Source of the DNA: a virus
Lineage: Duplodnaviria > Heunggongvirae > Uroviricota > Caudoviricetes
DNA: 9,255 bases
Reading direction: 5' to 3' (one strand)
IMG/VR virus record: IMGVR_UViG_2778261231_000013
Positions 1-9,255 of the stretch are shown piece by piece. Position 1 is the first letter of the stretch. The number at the start of each line of letters is the position of its first letter. Made by a program: the position numbers and the translations under genes. The notes below the pieces were generated by a model. It searched no databases and was not told the DNA's origin. It was given only the letters and a program-made list of their open reading frames with translations.

Positions 1-243
1 TTACAGTGCCAGCGATAGCTGATCTTCGCCGTGGTGACTTCGTGGAAAAGCTTCTTGTGGCACCATCGCGCCTGGCGCTGGCTGGGTCTGGTTTAGTGAA
101 CCGTCTATTTCCGTCATGCTGGTGAAACAGTACCCGCACAACATATTTTGACACTGGTGATAGCTGCGCCGTACAAGCAAACTCAGCTCAACGCTGGTTC
201 TGGTTTTTGCTATTGCACGGCAGCGAGGACAGCGCATTGCCAT
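1..243 (-). CDS. ogr: Ogr/Delta-family zinc-finger late transcription activator
   Basis: 80-codon ORF with stop at 1-3. Translation carries the Cys-X2-Cys ... Cys-X4-Cys pattern (CPRC ... CQNMLC) and the RTS and YHQCQN motifs I recall from P2 Ogr. It lies immediately downstream of D on the same strand, as in P2. GGAGG (minus strand, 251-255) sits 7 nt upstream of the ATG at 243; a second in-frame ATG is at 237. Confidence 0.85.
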   Translation of the reverse strand: MAMRCPRCRAIAKTRTSVELSLLVRRSYHQCQNMLCGYCFTSMTEIDGSLNQTQPAPGAMVPQEAFPRSHHGEDQLSLAL

Positions 244-291
244 ACGCGGGCCTCCTTTCAGGACTGGTTAATATCAACGCAAGTATAACGC

Positions 292-1410
292 TTAAGACGT
301 TGAATCGTCACTCTCCGCTGTCCAGTCGTCGATTTTTACTTCCAGTTCCAGCGACGTGGTAAACCCTCCCCCACCAATATCATGAACACACCGCGTTATC
401 GTCCAGTTCCCACTGTCGATCGTGGACTTAAAGCCGTAGACGCTGGCGGGCTGTTCCGGGTACAAATCTGCGCGGCCACGCGCCAGGGTGATGCTGAACG
501 TCGCTGCCCCGCGCTGCAACTCCCGCCACTTAGCCGCTGCGGCACGCTTTGCCGCCTTTTCCGTCTTGAAGGTTTTACGGATAACAAAAACGTTGCCTTC
601 GGCCCCGGCCAGATAATCCCCTTCTTTTTTGCTTGATGCTGGTTCTTTCTTTTTGGCCTGGCTGGTTCGTCGCCTGCGGGTGGTTTTCTTCACGGTAGTG
701 GATGGTTTCTTGCCAAAGTTGAGATCAAGCCAGTATGCAGTTACGCCCGTGTACGCGTCGCGGTCAGCTACGTTAAACCGATGTTTATCACCGCATGACC
801 GGACTATCTCGATCACCGGCAGCGGCTTGCCGCTCTGCGTCACTCCCTTGCCCGGCGTGATAAACAGAAGCATACCGTTTTTAATGGTTGCCACCGCGCC
901 CAGCATTTCGGCCATGCGCGTTAAGAAGCTGATATCTGATTCACTCGTCTGATCGGCGTGGTCTATCTCAATCTTCGCCAGTTCTTCGCTGACGCCCGCA
1001 CGCAGATCGTAGCGGCTGGCAATGCTGGCGACCACGTCCCCCACGGTAATATCGTGCCAGCTATATTCCCGCTTCACGTTAAAGGTATCGCGGAAATCTG
1101 CGCTTCTGGCACTGATCGTTAGCTGGTCAGGCGGGCCAGAGTGTCCGATCTCGTCAACCGTATACACGCCCTTAAAAACCAATGGATCATTATCCCAGCC
1201 CAGCGCCACCGATATCTTTGCGCCGCGTGATGGTAAGGCTACCTGCCCGTCTGCATCATCCAGAGTCAGATCCAGCGTGTCCGCTTCAAAGCCCCGGTTA
1301 TCTGTCAGGGAAAGGGAGATCAGCCGGTTATCCAGCGCCGTAAGCTCCTTACCTTCAATCTCAATACTGAACGCCGGGCGCGGCGAATATCGGTTTTCTG
1401 TCGTGTCCAT
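292..1410 (-). CDS. gpD: Tail protein D (P2 gpD-like late control gene D / baseplate hub-type protein)
   Basis: 372-aa ORF of the size and general sequence character of P2 gpD. It directly precedes ogr on the same strand, the P2 D-ogr arrangement. AAGGGG Shine-Dalgarno on the minus strand just upstream of the ATG at 1410. Confidence 0.85.
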   Translation of the reverse strand: MDTTENRYSPRPAFSIEIEGKELTALDNRLISLSLTDNRGFEADTLDLTLDDADGQVALPSRGAKISVALGWDNDPLVFKGVYTVDEIGHSGPPDQLTISARSADFRDTFNVKREYSWHDITVGDVVASIASRYDLRAGVSEELAKIEIDHADQTSESDISFLTRMAEMLGAVATIKNGMLLFITPGKGVTQSGKPLPVIEIVRSCGDKHRFNVADRDAYTGVTAYWLDLNFGKKPSTTVKKTTRRRRTSQAKKKEPASSKKEGDYLAGAEGNVFVIRKTFKTEKAAKRAAAAKWRELQRGAATFSITLARGRADLYPEQPASVYGFKSTIDSGNWTITRCVHDIGGGGFTTSLELEVKIDDWTAESDDSTS

Positions 1411-1477
1411 ATCAACCCCTTCATCATGATGGGGTACATCGTCGCCACGCGCGCGCGCATGAACAACGCCCCGTCAT

Positions 1478-1495
1478 TGTTGCAGGTTGCTGACA
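1478..1495. promoter_or_regulatory. Candidate Ogr-responsive late-promoter operator (TGT-N12-ACA dyad) in the divergent D/FI intergenic region
   Basis: The sequence TGTtgcaggttgctgACA at 1478-1495 matches the TGT-N12-ACA dyad described for P2/P4 late promoters (normally centred near -55). Its centre is about 81 bp upstream of the FI ATG; a weak -10-like GATATT lies at 1533-1538. No experimental support is available from sequence alone. Confidence 0.5.
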
Positions 1496-1567
1496 ACCCT
1501 TATCCATCGCATCGGCCCGCCATTGCCGCAATGATATTCGCAGTCATTAAACTGGCGAGGCAAATAC

Positions 1568-2761
1568 ATGGCCACTAACTACCATCACGGTGTTACCGTC
1601 ACGGAAACCACCGACCTTAGCACGATGATCACCGACATTGATTCGGCGGTGATCGGCGTTGTCTGCACCGCTGATGATGCGGACGAAACAGCGTTCCCGC
1701 TGGATACCCCTGTACTGATTACCCGCGTGGCTAACATGCTGGGCAAGGCAGGTAAAACCGGCACCCTGTTTACCACCCTGAAAGCGATTTCAGACCAGAC
1801 CAGCCCGCAAACCATTGTGATCCGCGTTGCTGATGCTGCAAATATCAAACCGCCAGAAGGCGGCACCGCACAGACTCAGGATCAACTGGTTATTGGCGGC
1901 ACCGATGCAAACGGGCGCTTTACCGGCATGTACGCGCTGCTGTCTGCCGAAATGCGCGTAGGTGTGCGCCCGCGTGTACTGGCTGTTCCTGGGCTTGATA
2001 CGGAAGCGGTAGCCGCACAACTCGGCGTCATTGCCGAAAAGCTGCGCGCGTTTGCTTACGTGGCAGCGAACGGCTGCAACACAATCGCCGAAGTGAAGGT
2101 ATACCGCGAGCAATTCTCCCAGCGTGAAATGATGGTTATCTGGCCTAATTTCATCTGCTACGACACCAACGCCGGGGCTAATGCCACCGTGCCCGTGGGT
2201 GCCCATGCTGTTGGGATGCGCGCCAAAATCGACGCAACGCAGGGCTGGCATAAAACCATTTCCAACGTGCCCGTTAATAACGTGCTGGGGATGGATCGGG
2301 ATATCTATTTCACGTTGCAGGGCACCGATACCGACGCCGACGAACTGAACGCAGCAGGTGTTACCACGCTGATCAAGCAGGACGGCTACCGCATCTGGGG
2401 ATCACGTACCTGCGACGCGGAAACGTATATCTTCGAAAGCTATACCCGAACCGCGCAGATTGTTGCGGATACCGTCGCCGAAGCCCATTTCGCCTATGTT
2501 GATAAACCGCTTACCCCGTCGCTGGTAAAGGACATTGTGGACGGCATCAATAAGAAGCTGACCTCATATGTGACGGCTGGCAAGCTGCTGGGCGCCCGCT
2601 GCTGGTATGACCCAGAACCGAATACCTCGGAAACTCTGCGCAATGGTCAACTGACCATTAAGTACAACTACACCCCTGTTCCACCGCTGGAAAATCTCAG
2701 CCTGGTACAGGAGTTCACCGACGAATATTTCGCTACGTTTTCCAGCGCAGTGAATAACTAA
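1568..2761 (+). CDS. gpFI: Contractile tail sheath protein (P2 gpFI-like)
   Basis: 397-aa ORF, the size of P2 FI, with an N-terminal ...YHHGV... segment as I recall for P2-type sheath proteins. GAGG 7 nt upstream of the ATG. Followed 12 nt later by the tail tube gene, as in P2. Confidence 0.9.
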   Translation: MATNYHHGVTVTETTDLSTMITDIDSAVIGVVCTADDADETAFPLDTPVLITRVANMLGKAGKTGTLFTTLKAISDQTSPQTIVIRVADAANIKPPEGGTAQTQDQLVIGGTDANGRFTGMYALLSAEMRVGVRPRVLAVPGLDTEAVAAQLGVIAEKLRAFAYVAANGCNTIAEVKVYREQFSQREMMVIWPNFICYDTNAGANATVPVGAHAVGMRAKIDATQGWHKTISNVPVNNVLGMDRDIYFTLQGTDTDADELNAAGVTTLIKQDGYRIWGSRTCDAETYIFESYTRTAQIVADTVAEAHFAYVDKPLTPSLVKDIVDGINKKLTSYVTAGKLLGARCWYDPEPNTSETLRNGQLTIKYNYTPVPPLENLSLVQEFTDEYFATFSSAVNN

Positions 2762-2773
2762 CCGGGGGCGCTT

Positions 2774-3289
2774 ATGGCACTGCCTAAGAAACTCAAATAT
2801 TTCAATATGTTCTTTGACGGGGATAACTACTTCGGCATGGTGCCGGAAATCACCCCCGCCAAACTCACCAAAAAAACGGAAGACTACCAGGCGGGTGGTA
2901 TGCCGGGTTCGGTTGCGGTGGATCTTGGCTTCGACGCTGGCGCCCTGGATATGGATATCACGCTTGGCGGTCTGGATGCCGGATTGCTGAAAAAATGGGG
3001 CGTTACCACTGCGGACGGGATGCAAACACGTTTTGCTGGCTCCTATCAGGACGACGCAACCGGCGACGCTGTACCGTGCGAAATCCAGACGCGTGGCCGC
3101 TTCACTGAACTGGATCCCGGTTCGGCAAAAGTCGGGGATGACACTTCGCATAAGTACACCCTGAAAAACACCTATTACAAGCTGACCATCAACGGCGAAG
3201 AGATCATCGAAGTTGATGTGCTCAACATGATCTACAAAGTTGCCGGTGTGGATGTGCTGGAAAAACACCGCGCTAACATCGGCCTATAA
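2774..3289 (+). CDS. gpFII: Tail tube protein (P2 gpFII-like)
   Basis: 171-aa ORF starting MALPKKLKYFNMF and ending ...RANIGL, colinear with my recollection of P2 FII (about 172 aa). Lies immediately after the sheath gene. Confidence 0.9.
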   Translation: MALPKKLKYFNMFFDGDNYFGMVPEITPAKLTKKTEDYQAGGMPGSVAVDLGFDAGALDMDITLGGLDAGLLKKWGVTTADGMQTRFAGSYQDDATGDAVPCEIQTRGRFTELDPGSAKVGDDTSHKYTLKNTYYKLTINGEEIIEVDVLNMIYKVAGVDVLEKHRANIGL

Positions 3290-3303
3290 GGAAACCCGGC
3301 ACC

Positions 3304-3639
3304 ATGAGCAAGACCAAAGAAAACACCGTTATTCTTACCGCCCCTATTACGCGCGGTAAGACCAAAATCACCGAAGTGGCGATCACTTCCGTGCTTAAAC
3401 AGGCTGGATCACTGCGCGGCTTAAAAGCCTATGACGTGCTGACTTCCAACTATGACGCGCTGGTTATTCTGCTGCCCCGCGTTACCGCTCCGGCACTAAC
3501 CGCCGATGAGATTGCCCGTATGGATACTTGGGATTTTTGCCAGCTAGCCAACGCGGTGGTTGATTTTTTGCAACCCTCTTCGGATCTGACCGCGACGGAT
3601 ACGGGCAACGAATCATCCGATGCCCCTGCGAACGCATAG
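3304..3639 (+). CDS. gpE: Tail assembly chaperone (P2 gpE-like), zero-frame product
   Basis: 111-aa ORF between the tube and tape-measure genes, the position of P2 E. AAGGAAA upstream of the ATG. Contains the T_TTT_TTG slippery heptamer at 3564-3570. Confidence 0.8.
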   Translation: MSKTKENTVILTAPITRGKTKITEVAITSVLKQAGSLRGLKAYDVLTSNYDALVILLPRVTAPALTADEIARMDTWDFCQLANAVVDFLQPSSDLTATDTGNESSDAPANA

Positions 3640-3764
3640 AAGACCTGATGGCAGATATCGCCGTCATATTCCACTGGCGGCCGGTAGAGATGGACGCCAT
3701 GACGGTACAGGAAATACTGTTATGGCGTGATCAGGCGGCTGCGCGCAGTGGTGGAGATAACTAA
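3304..3764 (+). CDS. gpE+E': Tail assembly chaperone E+E' fusion made by programmed -1 ribosomal frameshift (predicted, about 153 aa)
   Basis: After slippage on T_TTT_TTG (3564-3570) the -1 frame is open for 64 codons (ATLFGSDRDGYGQRIIRCPCERIEDLMADIAVIFHWRPVEMDAMTVQEILLWRDQAAARSGGDN) and ends at TAA 3762-3764, which abuts the T start at 3765. This fills an otherwise unexplained 125-bp gap and mirrors the P2 E/E' arrangement. Confidence 0.7.
3564..3570 (+). other. -1 programmed frameshift slippery heptamer T_TTT_TTG
   Basis: Zero-frame codons GAT-TTT-TTG (D-F-L) give the X_XXY_YYZ pattern with X=T, Y=T, Z=G, the heptamer reported for P2 E/E'. Confidence 0.7.
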
Positions 3765-6692
3765 ATGGCAGACCGCAATTTAAATATCAGGGTGGCATTC
3801 AGCGCCCTGAATAATATGTCCCGCCCTGTCAACGCGGCGCGCCAGAGTGCCGCCGCGTTGGCGTCTCAAATCAACCAGACTAAAACCAGCATTAAAGGGC
3901 TTGAGCGTCAGGCAACCAGCTTTGACCGCCTCACCGCAGCCAATAAAAAAACCACCGAACAACTGGCCCAGGCGAAAGAACAGGCCCGGCAAATGGCGGC
4001 GGCTTATGGCCCGTTACGCCAGCGCAGCGCCGAACAGGTTGCCGCCCTCAATCAGCAACGTGCAGCCATTCGCCAGTTAACCCAGCAGCAGAAAGGCGAG
4101 CAGACGCAGCTTAACCAGTTGCGGGCCAGCTTCTACAGCGAAGGCATTGCGATCAGCAGCGCCAGCCGGGCGACGGAACAGATCAACCAGCGCACCGCGC
4201 AATACAACCGCCAGCTTGCCGAACAGCAGCGACGGCTTGACGCTGTTAACCAGGCGCAGGCCCGTTACAGCCGCGCCAAAGAAACCGGCGAAAAGATGAT
4301 GAGCGGGGGGATGAAAAGCGCCGCAGTAGGGGCGGCAACCCTAGCACCTGTCGCCGCTGCGGTTAAATCCTACAGCAGCCTTGAAGACGCCATGAAAGGC
4401 GTAGCCAAACAGGTAAACGGCTTGCGTGACGACAGCGGCAACCGCACCCCGCAATATGAAGAAATGCAGCGGGCGATCATGGATGCCAGCGAAAAGCTGC
4501 CAATGGCAAACGGTGCTGTTGACTATGCCGCACTGGTCGAAGGCGGCGCACGTATGGGCGTAGCAAACATCGATGATCCGTGGGAAAAACAAAAAGCCGA
4601 TCTGCTGTCTTTCGCCAGCATGGCGGCAAAGGCTTCTGTTGCCTTTGAACTTCCCGCCGACCAGCTTTCTGAAAGTCTCGGTAAGATTGCCGGGCTGTAT
4701 AAAATCCCTACCCAGAATATTGAACAGTTAGGCGACGCCATAAACTACCTGGACGATAACGCGAAGTCGAAAGGCTCCGATATTATCGACGTGCTCCAGC
4801 GCGTTGGCGGACTTGCCAGCCAACTGGATTACAAGCAAGCCGCCGCGCTGGGTTCCACCTTTCTGACGCTCGGCACCCCTGCCGAAGTTGCCGCCAGCGC
4901 CACCAATGCAATGGTGCGCGAACTCTCAATCGCTACGGTTCAGGGCAAAAACTTTATGCAGGGTCTGGACGCCCTCGGCCTCAGCGCCGAAAAAGTTCAG
5001 AAGAGCATGTCAGTGGACGCGATGGGCACAATCATTTCAGTGCTGGAAGCGTCCAAAAAACTGGCCCCGGATCAGCAGGTAGCCAACCTTACCCAGATTT
5101 TCGGCAAAGAGTTCGGCGATGATGCGCAGAAACTTGCGAACAATCTGCCCGAACTACGCCGCCAGATAGAACTGACGCAGGGCGCAGCCGCTAAAGGATC
5201 CATGAATCGGGAATCGGATATCAACAAAGCTTCCCTTTCTGCTCAGTGGCAACTGACCAAAACCGGCGCGGTTAACGCATTCAGTTCAGCAGGGGAAACG
5301 CTCCGCGAACCGCTGATGGATATCATGCTTACTGTCAGTAAGGTGGTTGGCAGCGTCCGCCGCTGGGTTGAGGCAAACCCGGCGTTGGTTGGTTCAATCA
5401 TGAAAGTCACCGCAGCCATAGGCGCGTTGCTGGTTGTCGTGGGCGGTCTGATGCTGTCCATTGGTGCGGTACTCGGCCCAATGGCACTTGTTCGCCTCAG
5501 CTTCACCACGTTGGCCGGGGAAGGAGGAATAGCGCGGCTGACTGGCGGCGTAATGCGCCTGGGTGGTGCGTTCCAGTGGCTTGCTGGCTCGCCTATGCAG
5601 GCATTGTTAAGCGCCGGTCGCATGGTATTCGGCCCGCTTATCACGCTACTGGCTGGCATTTCTGCGCCCGTCTGGGGGCTGATTGCTCTCTTTTCTGCGG
5701 CAGCTGTGGCCGTCATTAAATTCTGGCAACCGATTAAGGCATTTTTCAGCGGGTTCTTTACCGGGCTGATGGCTGGCCTTCAACCTATCACGCAGGCATT
5801 TAACGCCGTATTTGCACCGCTGGCCCCGATTTTTGACAGTATCGGCAACGCGATCAGCGGCGTCTGGGAGTGGTTTACCAAACTGCTGGAACCGATCCAG
5901 TTTTCCAGCGAAGCGCTGGCATCCTGTACCAGTGCAGGGGAAACATTCGGCAAGGTGGTAGGGGGTGCAATCAGCGCGCTGACTCTTCCCATTCAGTCCG
6001 TAGCCAAAGGGCTGGGCTGGATTCTGGAAAAGCTTGGCGCCATTCCCGACGCAGCGAAAGCAGCGCAGCAGGTTGCGCAGCAAATGACGCCGGAAGCGGT
6101 CAACAATCTGGCAGACCGGGTTAACGCCTTTTCCGGTGACGTGCAGGCAGTCGCGAAGGAAAGCAAAAAAGCCGAAGAGAAAAAGAAAACCGATGAGCAG
6201 AAGAAACAGGACAACCTGATTAACTCGCTCAAAGGCCCGGCCAACATCGTGCCGAAGATGAGCAGTAGCTTGGACAAAATCGCCACCAATACCACGGAGA
6301 AGAAAGACGGCCCCGGCGAAATTGTCTTCAAGAATAAGCAGCCCTATATCCCGATCCGTGGCGGATATTCGGAACCTCTTAAGCAGGCACAGCGCCAGCT
6401 ACCATCCCTTACCGATTGGGTGACGCAGCAGGCCGGATCGCTGATCGCTTCCGTTACCCCCTGGCAGGTTGAGAAGCCCGCCGCCCGGGTGCCCGTTTCG
6501 GCGTCGCCGTCTGCGGCCTCCGTCGCTGCGCTGATGCCTGCACCGGGTGGCGATGTATATAACCTTAACTTCGACTTTAGCGGCCAGAAACTGGATGAAG
6601 AAACCATTATCAGGCGCGTGCGCGAAGAACTTGCGTTAGCGAAGCAGCAGGCCGACCGGCGCAAGCGTTCCCAACTGACCGATCACGTCTAA
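3765..6692 (+). CDS. gpT: Tail tape measure protein (P2 gpT-like)
   Basis: 975-aa ORF in the position of P2 T. Q/A-rich coiled-coil-like N-terminal third, central hydrophobic segments (for example ALVGSIMKVTAAIGALLVVVGGLMLSIGAVLGPMALV), and a charged K/E-rich patch, all typical of tape measure proteins. Confidence 0.9.
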   Translation: MADRNLNIRVAFSALNNMSRPVNAARQSAAALASQINQTKTSIKGLERQATSFDRLTAANKKTTEQLAQAKEQARQMAAAYGPLRQRSAEQVAALNQQRAAIRQLTQQQKGEQTQLNQLRASFYSEGIAISSASRATEQINQRTAQYNRQLAEQQRRLDAVNQAQARYSRAKETGEKMMSGGMKSAAVGAATLAPVAAAVKSYSSLEDAMKGVAKQVNGLRDDSGNRTPQYEEMQRAIMDASEKLPMANGAVDYAALVEGGARMGVANIDDPWEKQKADLLSFASMAAKASVAFELPADQLSESLGKIAGLYKIPTQNIEQLGDAINYLDDNAKSKGSDIIDVLQRVGGLASQLDYKQAAALGSTFLTLGTPAEVAASATNAMVRELSIATVQGKNFMQGLDALGLSAEKVQKSMSVDAMGTIISVLEASKKLAPDQQVANLTQIFGKEFGDDAQKLANNLPELRRQIELTQGAAAKGSMNRESDINKASLSAQWQLTKTGAVNAFSSAGETLREPLMDIMLTVSKVVGSVRRWVEANPALVGSIMKVTAAIGALLVVVGGLMLSIGAVLGPMALVRLSFTTLAGEGGIARLTGGVMRLGGAFQWLAGSPMQALLSAGRMVFGPLITLLAGISAPVWGLIALFSAAAVAVIKFWQPIKAFFSGFFTGLMAGLQPITQAFNAVFAPLAPIFDSIGNAISGVWEWFTKLLEPIQFSSEALASCTSAGETFGKVVGGAISALTLPIQSVAKGLGWILEKLGAIPDAAKAAQQVAQQMTPEAVNNLADRVNAFSGDVQAVAKESKKAEEKKKTDEQKKQDNLINSLKGPANIVPKMSSSLDKIATNTTEKKDGPGEIVFKNKQPYIPIRGGYSEPLKQAQRQLPSLTDWVTQQAGSLIASVTPWQVEKPAARVPVSASPSAASVAALMPAPGGDVYNLNFDFSGQKLDEETIIRRVREELALAKQQADRRKRSQLTDHV

Positions 6693-6702
6693 GGGCAATA
6701 TC

Positions 6703-7152
6703 ATGATGATGATTCTGGGGATGTTCCCCTTTTCACTGCAAACCACGCCTTACCAGAGTGCGAATAAAACCAACTCCTGGCGGCACGTCAAAAACGATCG
6801 CGTGGGGAAATCCCCGCGCTATCAGTTCATCGGCGCAGATGAAGAACCGTTCGTACTCAGCGGCACGCTGTACCCCGAAATAAGCGGCGGTGATGTGTCG
6901 CTTGTCATGCTGGAAACTATGGCTTTTTCCGGGCGCCCGTGGCCCCTGATAGAAGGCACGGGCAGGATCTACGGCATGTATGTCATTGAGCAGATCACGC
7001 AAAACCGGACGGAATTTTTTAAGGACGGGAAGGCAAAGAAAATTGATTTTACGCTCAACCTGAAACGGGTAAGCGAGGACATACGGGAAAAGCTGGCTGA
7101 AACAACTACCGACGATCTCTTCTCTCTGGTGAAAACCAACCTTTCGATATAA
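6703..7152 (+). CDS. gpU: Tail protein U (P2 gpU-like)
   Basis: 149-aa ORF starting MMMILGMF, with SWRH, VGK and TGG motifs matching my recollection of P2 gpU (which also starts MMM). Lies directly after T. AAGGG 7 nt upstream of the ATG. Confidence 0.85.
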   Translation: MMMILGMFPFSLQTTPYQSANKTNSWRHVKNDRVGKSPRYQFIGADEEPFVLSGTLYPEISGGDVSLVMLETMAFSGRPWPLIEGTGRIYGMYVIEQITQNRTEFFKDGKAKKIDFTLNLKRVSEDIREKLAETTTDDLFSLVKTNLSI

Positions 7153-7155
7153 GAA

Positions 7156-7175
7156 AAGCGGGCCTTTGCCCGCTT
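7156..7175. terminator. GC-rich hairpin between convergent U and invertase genes (candidate bidirectional intrinsic terminator)
   Basis: AAGCGGGC (7156-7163), loop CTTT, GCCCGCTT (7168-7175) form a perfect 8-bp stem. An A-rich run precedes it on the plus strand, which gives a U-rich tail for minus-strand transcripts; the plus-strand tail (CGTCTTCC) is less U-rich. Confidence 0.5.
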
Positions 7176-7258
7176 CGTCTTCCGGAACACACCGCCATAA
7201 CTGACCGTGCTACAGCACCGTTAAAAATGACTGTACTCGATACGCACGGCCAGCACGG

Positions 7259-7840
7259 TTAGAACCAGCCATGCGTGCCGGAATCCTTATTCCTGGTCGC
7301 AGGGAATTTTTTGTAAAGCGTAGATATCCCAACATCGTAAATTATAGCAACCCTCCGGCGAGATTCTCCTGCCGCTATTAATCTACCCGCCTGCGCCCAT
7401 TGTTCTGGTGTTAGTTTTGGTCGTCTACCTCCGATCCTTCCCTGCGCGCGAGCGGCCACCAGTCCTGCACGCGTACGCTCGACAATCAATTCTCTCTCCA
7501 TCTCTGCCAGTGCCCCCATAACATGAAAAAAGAAACGCCCCATTGGCGTTGATGTATCAATACTGTCAGTCAAGCTGCGGAAGTTCACGGAACGTTGCTT
7601 TAGCTCCTCCACGAGAATTACCAAGTTCCGCATACTCCGCCCAAGACGATCCAGCTTCCAGACAACAAGCGAGTCTCCTGGAGAAAGGCGCTTTAGTAAT
7701 TTTTTAAGCCCTGGCCTTTCCGCTGTTCTCCCGCTCATTTTATCTTCAAAAATTAGCTCACATCCTGACCGCTCAAGCGCATCACGTTGCAAAGCCGTGT
7801 TCTGGTCATTTGTTGATACGCGCACATACCCAATAAACAT
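7259..7840 (-). CDS. Site-specific DNA invertase, serine recombinase of the Din family (Gin/Pin/Cin/Hin-like)
   Basis: 193-aa ORF with N-terminus MFIGYVRVSTNDQ carrying the catalytic serine, then conserved blocks LVVWKLDRLGRSM, FRSLTDSIDTSTPMGRFFFHVMGALAEMERELIVERT and a C-terminal helix-turn-helix (VAIIYDVGISTLYKKF). It is near-colinear with my recollection of Pin (e14) and Gin (Mu). Confidence 0.95.
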   Translation of the reverse strand: MFIGYVRVSTNDQNTALQRDALERSGCELIFEDKMSGRTAERPGLKKLLKRLSPGDSLVVWKLDRLGRSMRNLVILVEELKQRSVNFRSLTDSIDTSTPMGRFFFHVMGALAEMERELIVERTRAGLVAARAQGRIGGRRPKLTPEQWAQAGRLIAAGESRRRVAIIYDVGISTLYKKFPATRNKDSGTHGWF

Positions 7841-7894
7841 AGTTTTTCATTCCGTTAAAACGATAAATCATGCCATTCGCATAAAAATTATGCA

Positions 7895-7920
7895 TTTTCC
7901 AAAACGTTGGTTTGGGGGAA
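7895..7920. other. Candidate 26-bp invertase crossover site (hix/gix/cix-like)
   Basis: TTTTCCAAAACG-TT-GGTTTGGGGGAA: two imperfect inverted 12-bp half-sites around a central TT dinucleotide. It resembles the Din-family consensus half-site TTATC(C/A)AAAACC (about 9-10 of 12 matches per half). It lies 55 bp upstream of the invertase start, where such sites sit next to gin/pin/cin. Confidence 0.6.
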
Positions 7921-8259
7921 GCGGCCAAATTGCCTGCGATTAGTGGCTCTTTATCATCATCTGGCTGGATAAAAATCCCTGTTATAGAGGGGGAGTCTTT
8001 TATTATCCAATGGGGAAGAATCGGACCTTCTGATAGTAAAACTGGTGTTGCAACAGGAAGTTATCCTATTGCTTTTCCAAATTCTGCATTTATGGCATTT
8101 ATTGCTGAAAAAACCGCAGTATCCACAGGCCCAATAGGTATTAATTCCTGGGGAGTGTCCGAACTAACAAAAACAGAATTAAAGGCCATTTGTGCTGCAA
8201 GGACTATATCAACTTCAGCCGCAACTGAAATAGGTGATTTTCTGGTACTGGGATATTGA
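7912..8259 (+). CDS. Start-less tail-fibre C-terminal variable cassette (silent alternative receptor-binding end; no ATG start of its own)
   Basis: The ORF track starts it at a TTG, but the frame is open from 7885 across the crossover site. Its stop TGA (8257-8259) is followed by a tfa gene, the usual fibre-then-assembly order. It has no promoter or constant N-terminal fibre part in this orientation. Markedly AT-rich. Confidence 0.5.
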   Translation: MGEAAKLPAISGSLSSSGWIKIPVIEGESFIIQWGRIGPSDSKTGVATGSYPIAFPNSAFMAFIAEKTAVSTGPIGINSWGVSELTKTELKAICAARTISTSAATEIGDFLVLGY

Positions 8260-8279
8260 ACTTCCATAAGGATTATAAA

Positions 8280-8729
8280 ATGTCGAGCATAATATACTAC
8301 AGCTCTATAAATAATGCATTTTACCCTGAGCATTTGAAACAAGAATATATTAAATCTAATTCTTTTCCAGCAGATGCAAAACCCGTTAAATATTCTGTTT
8401 TCGAAGAATTTGCACTTAAACCAGCACCAGAAGGAAAATACAGATGCGTTGGTGAAGATGGAATGCCATCATGGGCAGATATTCCACCACCAACACATGA
8501 GGAACAGATTGCCGCAGCCGAATTGAAAAAGCAGCAATTGATTAACCAGGTCAACGAATACATGAACAGTAAACAATGGCCCGGTAAAGCGGCTATTGGT
8601 CGTCTGAAAGGTGAGGAACTGGCGCAATATAATCTGTGGCTGGATTACCTGGACGCACTGGAAATGGTCGATACTTCCAGTGCTCCAGATATTGAATGGC
8701 CTACGCCTCCGGCAGTTCAGGCCAGATGA
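8280..8729 (+). CDS. tfa: Tail fibre assembly protein (Tfa family; Mu U / lambda Tfa-like)
   Basis: ATG at 8280 preceded by AGGA (8270-8273); I prefer this to the upstream in-frame TTG at 8256. The C-terminus ...VDTSSAPDIEWPTPP matches the conserved Tfa C-terminal motif (compare TfaE ...VDTSTAPDIEWP, from memory). Confidence 0.8.
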   Translation: MSSIIYYSSINNAFYPEHLKQEYIKSNSFPADAKPVKYSVFEEFALKPAPEGKYRCVGEDGMPSWADIPPPTHEEQIAAAELKKQQLINQVNEYMNSKQWPGKAAIGRLKGEELAQYNLWLDYLDALEMVDTSSAPDIEWPTPPAVQAR

Positions 8730-9255
8730 CATCTGGCGCGGTGCTGGTATCAGTTGCCGTCACCGCGTCAATGTAATCCAGCACAGCGTTAAGGCGGGTT
8801 GTTTCTGCCTGCGTCAGCTTCCGCCCGGCCTGTAATTTCAGTTGAATCAGACTAATGGAAGCCATTGCAGTATCCATCAGCGACTGGCGCTGTGCTTCTG
8901 CTGCGTCTACTGCGGCGCTATGCTGTGCCTCAGTATCGGTCACCCATTTCTCACCATCCCATTTATCGTATGGCGTTAATGGGGCGATAGTGGTTGTATT
9001 TTCAGGGTAATCACCCGGAGCGGTGATTTCTTTTGATTCTCCTGTTTTGGTGCTATAGACCGTTTCACCGCGATGGTCTGGCACATATTCCCATGAGTTA
9101 AAATCTGCAGAACGGCAGATTGCATAACCAGCCTTATGTGTGCCAGGGGCATCTAAACAGGAACATGCCGGAATGCCGACACCAACGGCAAGATATTCAT
9201 TTGAAGTGGAAATATATTCCCGAGTTTCACCATCATAGCTATAGACGGTAATATT
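8701..9255 (-). CDS. tfa: Second tail fibre assembly protein (Tfa family), 5'-truncated by the window edge
   Basis: The minus-strand frame is open from the window edge to the stop at 8701-8703. Translation (...FNSWEYVPDHRGETVY...KWDGEKWVTDTEA...TDTSTAPDVIWPELPEA) is colinear with my recollection of e14 TfaE. The ORF track's 8701..9084 reflects only the first in-window alternative start (GTG); no ATG/GTG/TTG exists upstream in frame, so the real N-terminus lies past 9255. Confidence 0.8.
   Translation of the reverse strand, partial: NITVYSYDGETREYISTSNEYLAVGVGIPACSCLDAPGTHKAGYAICRSADFNSWEYVPDHRGETVYSTKTGESKEITAPGDYPENTTTIAPLTPYDKWDGEKWVTDTEAQHSAAVDAAEAQRQSLMDTAMASISLIQLKLQAGRKLTQAETTRLNAVLDYIDAVTATDTSTAPDVIWPELPEA

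Follow-up and report, generated by a model that had tools for sequence, protein, structure and literature searches.

The window, by which the whole stretch of 9,255 nucleotides analysed here is meant, represents an E. coli prophage resembling the Senquatrovirus phages SEN4/5. Positions 1-7916 are 100% identical to a prophage of E. coli NZ_LT883142 that adjoins fieF and pfkA. The Salmonella phages SEN4 and SEN5 (Peduoviridae, Senquatrovirus) form contractile-tailed virions. The tail operon of the window includes, besides the gene E discussed below, the following genes:

1568..2761, + strand: FI, tail sheath, the first gene of the operon (Pfam Phage_sheath_1, Phage_sheath_1C and Gp18_domIII_N)
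2774..3289, + strand: FII, tail tube, directly upstream of E (Pfam Phage_tube, E=3.4e-61)
3765..6692, + strand: T, tail tape measure, 975 aa (Pfam PhageMin_Tail, E=2.7e-22; TIGR01760 tape_meas, E=3.9e-81)
6703-7152, + strand: gpU, tail operon

No terminator-like site was found on the + strand between the tube gene, E and T, and the E/E' region, located between FII and T, thus belongs to one transcription unit. The tape measure protein T is presumed to be the client of E and E+E'. A GC-rich hairpin of 9 bp (7155-7176, GAAGCGGGC...GCCCGCTTT) is located between the stop codon of U (7152) and the convergent stop codon of an invertase gene (7259), and is likely the terminator closing the tail operon.

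The surroundings of the operon show several features of their own. The ogr gene (1-243) and the gene of gpD (292-1410) lie on the - strand upstream of FI, and the genes between 1568 and 7152 lie on the + strand. In phage L-413C, the order FI, FII, E, T, U, D, ogr is kept on a single strand, whereas in the window the block from FI to U stands inverted with respect to D/ogr and the tail-fibre genes, a layout shared with SEN5. The only TGT-N12-ACA sequence of the window (1478-1495) is found in the 157-nt intergenic region between the divergent D and FI genes, about 73 nt before the FI ATG; about 1.4 matches per whole window are expected by chance. A dyad of this kind serves P2 as the Ogr-type activator site of its late promoters. 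Downstream of U, the - strand encodes a serine DNA invertase (Resolvase and HTH_7 domains, 7259-7840), which is followed by a start-less C-terminal piece of a tail-fibre gene (7912-8259, + strand), a tail-fibre assembly gene (8256-8729, + strand) and an opposed tail-fibre assembly gene (8701-9084, - strand). The region 7259-9084 looks like a Gin/Cin-type invertible host-range segment. Past position 7916 the identity with NZ_LT883142 is lost, a hint of a different orientation or cassette; the search for inverted repeats within the window revealed only short ones.

The region between the tube and tape measure genes contains the following features:

3304..3639, + strand: gene E (0 frame), tail assembly chaperone, major product, as judged by the list of open reading frames, PHROG 103 and a sub-threshold Phage_TAC_7 match
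3561..3563, + strand: TGA closing the -1 frame directly 5' of the slip site, from frame reading
3564..3570, + strand: slippery heptamer T_TTT_TTG in phase with E, with codon 88 as the P-site codon and codon 89 as the A-site codon
3570..3764, + strand: E' extension in the -1 frame, 64 sense codons (3570-3761) followed by TAA (3762-3764)
join 3304..3570, 3570..3764, + strand: composite E+E', a predicted fusion of 153 aa and 16.9 kDa
3648..3752, + strand: P2 GpE (E') domain, extension residues 27-61 by Pfam limits, starting at an internal ATG
3750..3756, + strand: Shine-Dalgarno (SD)-like GGTGGAG for T within the end of E', with a duplex of -6.4 kcal/mol with the 16S 3' end and a 7-nt spacing

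Gene E begins with ATG 3304, ends with TAG 3637-3639 and encodes a protein of 111 aa and 11.8 kDa. The first-pass annotation had placed a TTTTTTG heptamer inside E, and a reading of the sequence gives the same position and phase: T is followed by TTT (codon 88 of 111, 3565-3567) and TTG (codon 89, 3568-3570). Because the TGA at 3561-3563, which the first-pass annotation did not mention, closes the -1 frame upstream, the -1 open reading frame taken from stop to stop covers exactly 3564-3764. SEN5 has such a TGA just 5' of the heptamer as well, and so do six (L017-L022) of the eight related genome loci. Downstream, the -1 frame is open for 64 codons to the TAA at 3762-3764, directly followed by the T start codon, ATG 3765, and all these coordinates had been given correctly. 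The apparent gap between E and T (3640-3764, 125 nt), where no open reading frame is listed, is filled by the -1 frame, as had been proposed, and the mass computed for the predicted fusion of 153 aa agrees with the earlier estimate of about 17 kDa. The ending of E' exactly at the T start codon, to which the first-pass annotation had drawn attention, holds for this clade, but 12 of 15 phage relatives show an overlap of 3-13 nt between E' and the start of T.

Comparison with protein families identified both parts of the putative fusion. The E' extension matches the Pfam family PF06528 (Phage_P2_GpE), scoring 60.6 bits (E=1e-16) where the cutoff is 23. The comparison of the -1 translation with P2 gpE' profiles had been proposed as a way of refuting the frameshift reading, and this match leaves the reading standing. 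The extension also matches PHROGs 1756 and 6416 (tail), the former spanning extension residues 7-64, nearly back to the slip site. Protein E matches PHROG 103, 'tail protein', with E=2.8e-34. Its match to Pfam PF10109 (Phage_TAC_7, tail assembly chaperones E, 41 and 14) takes in profile positions 1-78 of 79 at 23.1 bits (E=7.9e-05), below the gathering threshold of 25 bits. Fusion proteins were assembled for the window and 14 phage relatives; all 15 match PF06528, and 14 of them match Phage_TAC_7 at E<=0.01, the best value being 7.8e-20. This indicates that the window protein, with its score of 23.1 bits, is a divergent relative and not an outsider.

The BLASTP comparison with the gpE+E' protein of phage L-413C, which is annotated with a '-1 frameshift', revealed 40% identity over the full length and through the junction (E=2e-36), with window E residues 4-89 included in the alignment. 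The correspondence to the P2 E/E' frameshift expected by the first-pass annotation is thus borne out. No Pfam families besides Phage_TAC_7 and Phage_P2_GpE were found in E or the fusion at E<=0.01, no NCBIfam model matches either protein, and a sequence search of the PDB gave no match at E<=1. The single-sequence AlphaFold2 model (pLDDT 38) was too poor for a fold comparison with tail chaperones such as λ gpG/gpT.

The conservation of the slip signal was analysed in 23 relatives, comprising 15 phages (representing 14 named Peduoviridae genera, and one unclassified Vibrio phage) and eight genome loci. The phages include L-413C, 186, Fels-2, phiCTX, phiE202, RSA1 and Mana as well as phages of Mannheimia, Vibrio, Halomonas, Klebsiella, Yersinia and E. 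coli; the loci are from Salmonella, Citrobacter, Hafnia, Enterobacter, Dryocola, Serratia and, in two cases, Pectobacterium. In all 23 relatives, E carries an in-phase X_XXY_YYZ heptamer close to its 3' end. The slip site occupies a single column of the protein alignment in 15 of the 16 aligned sequences, and the window shares this column with L-413C, 186, phiCTX, Fels-2 and others; the only sequence off the column belongs to the Mannheimia phage, which has an acidic insertion ahead of the slip site. The -1 open reading frame after the heptamer comprises 51-73 codons in the 23 relatives and ends at points ranging from 13 nt inside T to 38 nt before it.

Of the 23 relatives, 19 have TTTTTTG as their heptamer, and the others have G_GGA_AAG, A_AAT_TTT, T_TTT_TTC or T_TTT_TTT, all of them legal slippery sites. 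The G_GGA_AAG and A_AAT_TTT heptamers belong to Mannheimia phage 587AP1 (L007, 682-688) and E. coli phage 503458 (L009, 643-649), at or near the same place in E, and these swaps are natural variation obeying the X_XXY_YYZ rule. A tblastn search with the fusion protein found 413 phage records, 384 of them with at least 80% query coverage. Among the matches listed, all 58 records with at least 73% coverage were joined from two pieces, as expected for a protein encoded in two reading frames. The arrangement is kept in relatives down to 32% protein identity.

Judged on the window sequence alone, the pattern is only suggestive as something beyond chance. In the genes of the window, the -1 frame is open for at least 64 codons at 7.3% of codon positions; the region 3570-3761 remains free of stop codons in 7.2% of shuffles, and some in-phase X_XXY_YYZ heptamer appears in 23% of codon-shuffled E sequences. 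It is the homology and the conservation that place the frameshift pattern well beyond chance. A second candidate site, A_AAC_CCG, is found in phase within T (5375-5381, codon 538), and the -1 frame after it is open for 112 codons. This site is probably a chance occurrence, because the sequence is a poor slippery one and about 7% of positions are followed by at least 64 open codons.

The selection acting on the two frames was estimated as pN/pS between the window and six loci that are 59-87% identical to it:

Upstream of the heptamer: 0 frame 0.25, -1 frame 2.23
E/E' overlap, 3571-3639: 0 frame 0.92, -1 frame 0.38
Past the E stop: 0 frame 1.18, -1 frame 0.27

Up to the heptamer it is the 0 frame that is under purifying selection, and beyond it the -1 frame. 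The region 3570-3647 contains no ATG, GTG or TTG codon in the -1 frame and already evolves as a sequence coding in this frame, a state that can be accounted for only by entry from E.

The public records read the locus differently. In the RefSeq annotation of the listed E. coli genomes, E' is a separate 'GpE family phage tail protein' of 24 aa that starts at ATG 3690 (window 3690-3764), and in the SEN5 record it is a stand-alone open reading frame of 38 aa, the equivalent of window 3648-3764. Such stand-alone E' frames were located at 6690-6764 in L001 and at 5345-5461 in L002. Following these RefSeq and GenBank entries, E' would be a small gene with its own start, ATG 3648 or ATG 3690, and a frameshift would be unneeded. 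It can be added in favour of such a gene that the Pfam GpE domain starts exactly at ATG 3648 and that 14 of 18 relatives have ATG or GTG at the corresponding position. However, ATG 3648 is essentially devoid of an SD sequence: its pairing with the anti-SD amounts to -1.0 kcal/mol, compared with -4.8 to -8.6 kcal/mol for the genuine start codons of FI, FII, E, T and U, and a start at ATG 3690 would halve the conserved domain. Besides, four relatives (Mannheimia, Vibrio, Klebsiella 3LV2017 and RSA1) possess no canonical start codon at or before the E' domain. E' has no usable start codon or SD of its own. Initiation within E' also leaves the start-less region 3570-3647 to be explained, with its purifying selection in the -1 frame (0.38 against 0.92) and its coverage by PHROG 1756, and would give the conserved in-phase heptamer no reason to exist. 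In P2, the corresponding product is reported to be a fusion of 142 aa (PMC3091744). Independent initiation of E' is thus very improbable.

With high probability, the tail assembly chaperone gene of this P2-like (SEN4/5-like) prophage undergoes programmed -1 ribosomal frameshifting of the P2 type. The majority of ribosomes would read the whole of E, from 3304 up to its TAG codon (3637-3639), yielding the chaperone of 111 aa. A minority would pause with tRNA-Phe on UUU (3565-3567) and tRNA-Leu on UUG (3568-3570), both tRNAs would move back by one base onto UUU_UUU (3564-3569), and reading would restart at GCA 3570 and proceed through 64 codons to the TAA at 3762-3764. The resulting E+E' protein of 153 aa would consist of the N-terminal residues 1-89 of E and the C-terminal GpE/E' domain, with the predicted junction peptide ...VVDFL-ATLFGSDR... 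(NAVVDFLATLFGSDR).

A polymerase could, in principle, produce the same fusion. If RNA polymerase slipped on the T6 run and inserted one extra U in some transcripts, E+E' would be made by ordinary translation; the homopolymeric run is present, and a protein longer by a single Phe could hardly be distinguished by size from the frameshift product. But a run of six bases is short for this process, and runs of about 9 are typical of efficient transcriptional slippage in enterobacteria. The run is, moreover, always in the X_XXY_YYZ phase, and some relatives have the non-homopolymeric legal heptamers G_GGA_AAG and A_AAT_TTT in its place, a pattern that accords with tandem tRNA slippage and not with polymerase stuttering, which we regard as having very little probability. 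Least of all can the open -1 frame be put down to chance or to decay in a prophage that is defective and lacks a functional second product, a reading that the frequencies of about 7% for such open frames and 23% for such heptamers might seem to allow but that is effectively refuted by the PF06528 match at E=1e-16, by the retention of the whole arrangement in 23 relatives down to 32% protein identity and by the purifying selection on the -1 frame, and that is also opposed by the intactness of all neighbouring tail genes.

The first-pass annotation had proposed a search for a stimulatory hairpin or pseudoknot downstream of the slip site, and none was found by folding, by consensus folding or with Rfam. 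The predicted folds of 3571-3620 (z=+0.90), 3571-3640 (z=-0.49) and 3564-3700 (z=-0.65) are no better than those of shuffled sequences. The consensus fold of eight relatives (-8.05 kcal/mol) has an unfavourable covariation term and no covariation support, and the Rfam scan gave no match at E<=1. Upstream, an SD-like GGTGG ends 4 nt before the heptamer (-6.3 kcal/mol), a strength equalled by 13% of background stretches. As a stimulator of the dnaX type it is not convincing, being weak and unconserved in position: its strength and spacing vary widely among the relatives, and it is missing in several of them. P2-type sites are reported to have no downstream structure (PMC3091744), so the absence of a stimulator is no argument against the frameshift; it is neutral with regard to ribosomal or transcriptional slippage. 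It seems unlikely that in this lineage the E:E+E' ratio is tuned by an unrecognised local signal, GGTGG or the TGA 5' of the heptamer, in place of RNA structure, and that the TAA-ATG junction couples T translation only to frameshifted ribosomes; if so, this coupling would tie the output of the tape measure protein to the amount of E+E'.

The possible roles of the two products can be drawn from phage λ. A layout with a frameshift in tail genes upstream of the tape measure gene is conserved (Xu, Hendrix and Duda 2004) and is described in general terms in PMC3091744 and PMC5009743. According to the summary in PMC5009743 of studies of λ gpG/gpGT (Levin et al. 1993; Xu et al. 2004, 2013, 2014), the tape measure protein of λ is bound, and the tube protein recruited, by G together with the less abundant GT fusion, in a fixed ratio; the same summary gives the short product as being in excess and the long one as proposed to bridge the tape measure and tube proteins. 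By analogy, the E part shared by both products may coat the tape measure protein T, and the rarer E' domain may recruit the tail tube protein. A fixed slip frequency would then set the E:E+E' ratio for tail assembly.

The observation is confirmed and its interpretation supported: this is a textbook, already-known recoding event that was left out of public annotation, and it adds nothing to the biology of frameshifting or tail assembly. In public records, E is often named 'hypothetical protein' or tail protein, and the slippage join is absent from RefSeq and GenBank records. Neither the SEN4/5 record nor the corresponding paper mentions a frameshift, the word occurring zero times in the paper. 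The E-E' region of the window is carried by 31 of 5,426 complete E. coli genomes. The value of the finding lies in correct annotation, as these 31 genomes and SEN4/5 present a 'GpE family' open reading frame of 24-38 aa, and the true second product is almost certainly the fusion of 153 aa, which is invisible to ORF callers. Annotation of E+E' as join (3304..3570, 3570..3764) removes both a spurious intergenic gap of 125 nt and a spurious mini-gene.

The closest known systems include those of SEN4 and SEN5, which are 97.6% identical to the window in nucleotide sequence over E-E' and have an identical heptamer, 64-codon extension and TAA-ATG junction. The gene order is also the same, the inverted D included (SEN5 genes SEN5_24 and SEN5_23). 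SEN5 differs by one change in E (A13V), one in E' (the final N to H) and the lack of an invertase after U.

The systems of P2 and of the P2-like Yersinia phage L-413C, which are arranged identically, share with the window the TTTTTTG heptamer, its phase and alignment column (...GFL/ in P2, ...DFL/ here), the direction of the slip (-1), a homologous E' domain (PF06528), the location between FII and T and the lack of a downstream RNA structure. The P2 E/E' frameshift reportedly has an efficiency of roughly 10%. According to PMC3091744, which refers to Christie et al. 2002 (J Bacteriol 184:6522), the TTTTTTG site of P2 gives an E protein of 91 aa and an E+E' protein of 142 aa and is conserved in P2-like phages. 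The differences from P2 are minor. E comprises 111 aa here, compared with 91 aa in P2; its 0-frame tail past the slip site is longer (22 codons), and 26 residues, compared with 19, link the slip site to the E' domain. E' ends right before the T ATG in the window and overlaps T by 8 nt (a 7-nt offset) in P2. Further differences are the TGA closing the -1 frame just ahead of the heptamer and the location of D and ogr on the opposite strand upstream of FI, not downstream in the operon; in the lineage of the window, moreover, the frameshift is unannotated.

The likeness to λ G/GT, which the first-pass annotation had put on a par with that to P2, holds for the gene layout and mechanism and does not extend to detectable sequence homology. 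In both phages, two overlapping open reading frames lie just before the tape measure gene, and the longer product has the same N-terminus as the shorter one. No sequence homology to the λ proteins was detected with Pfam, and the tail is contractile here but of the siphovirus type in λ. The λ heptamer, G_GGA_AAG, differs from the TTTTTTG of the window and is the same as that of one of the relatives analysed here. The roles of E and E+E' as chaperones would follow those of λ by analogy, and, judged by its sequence, the element is a member of the P2 family that resembles λ G/GT only in layout and mechanism.
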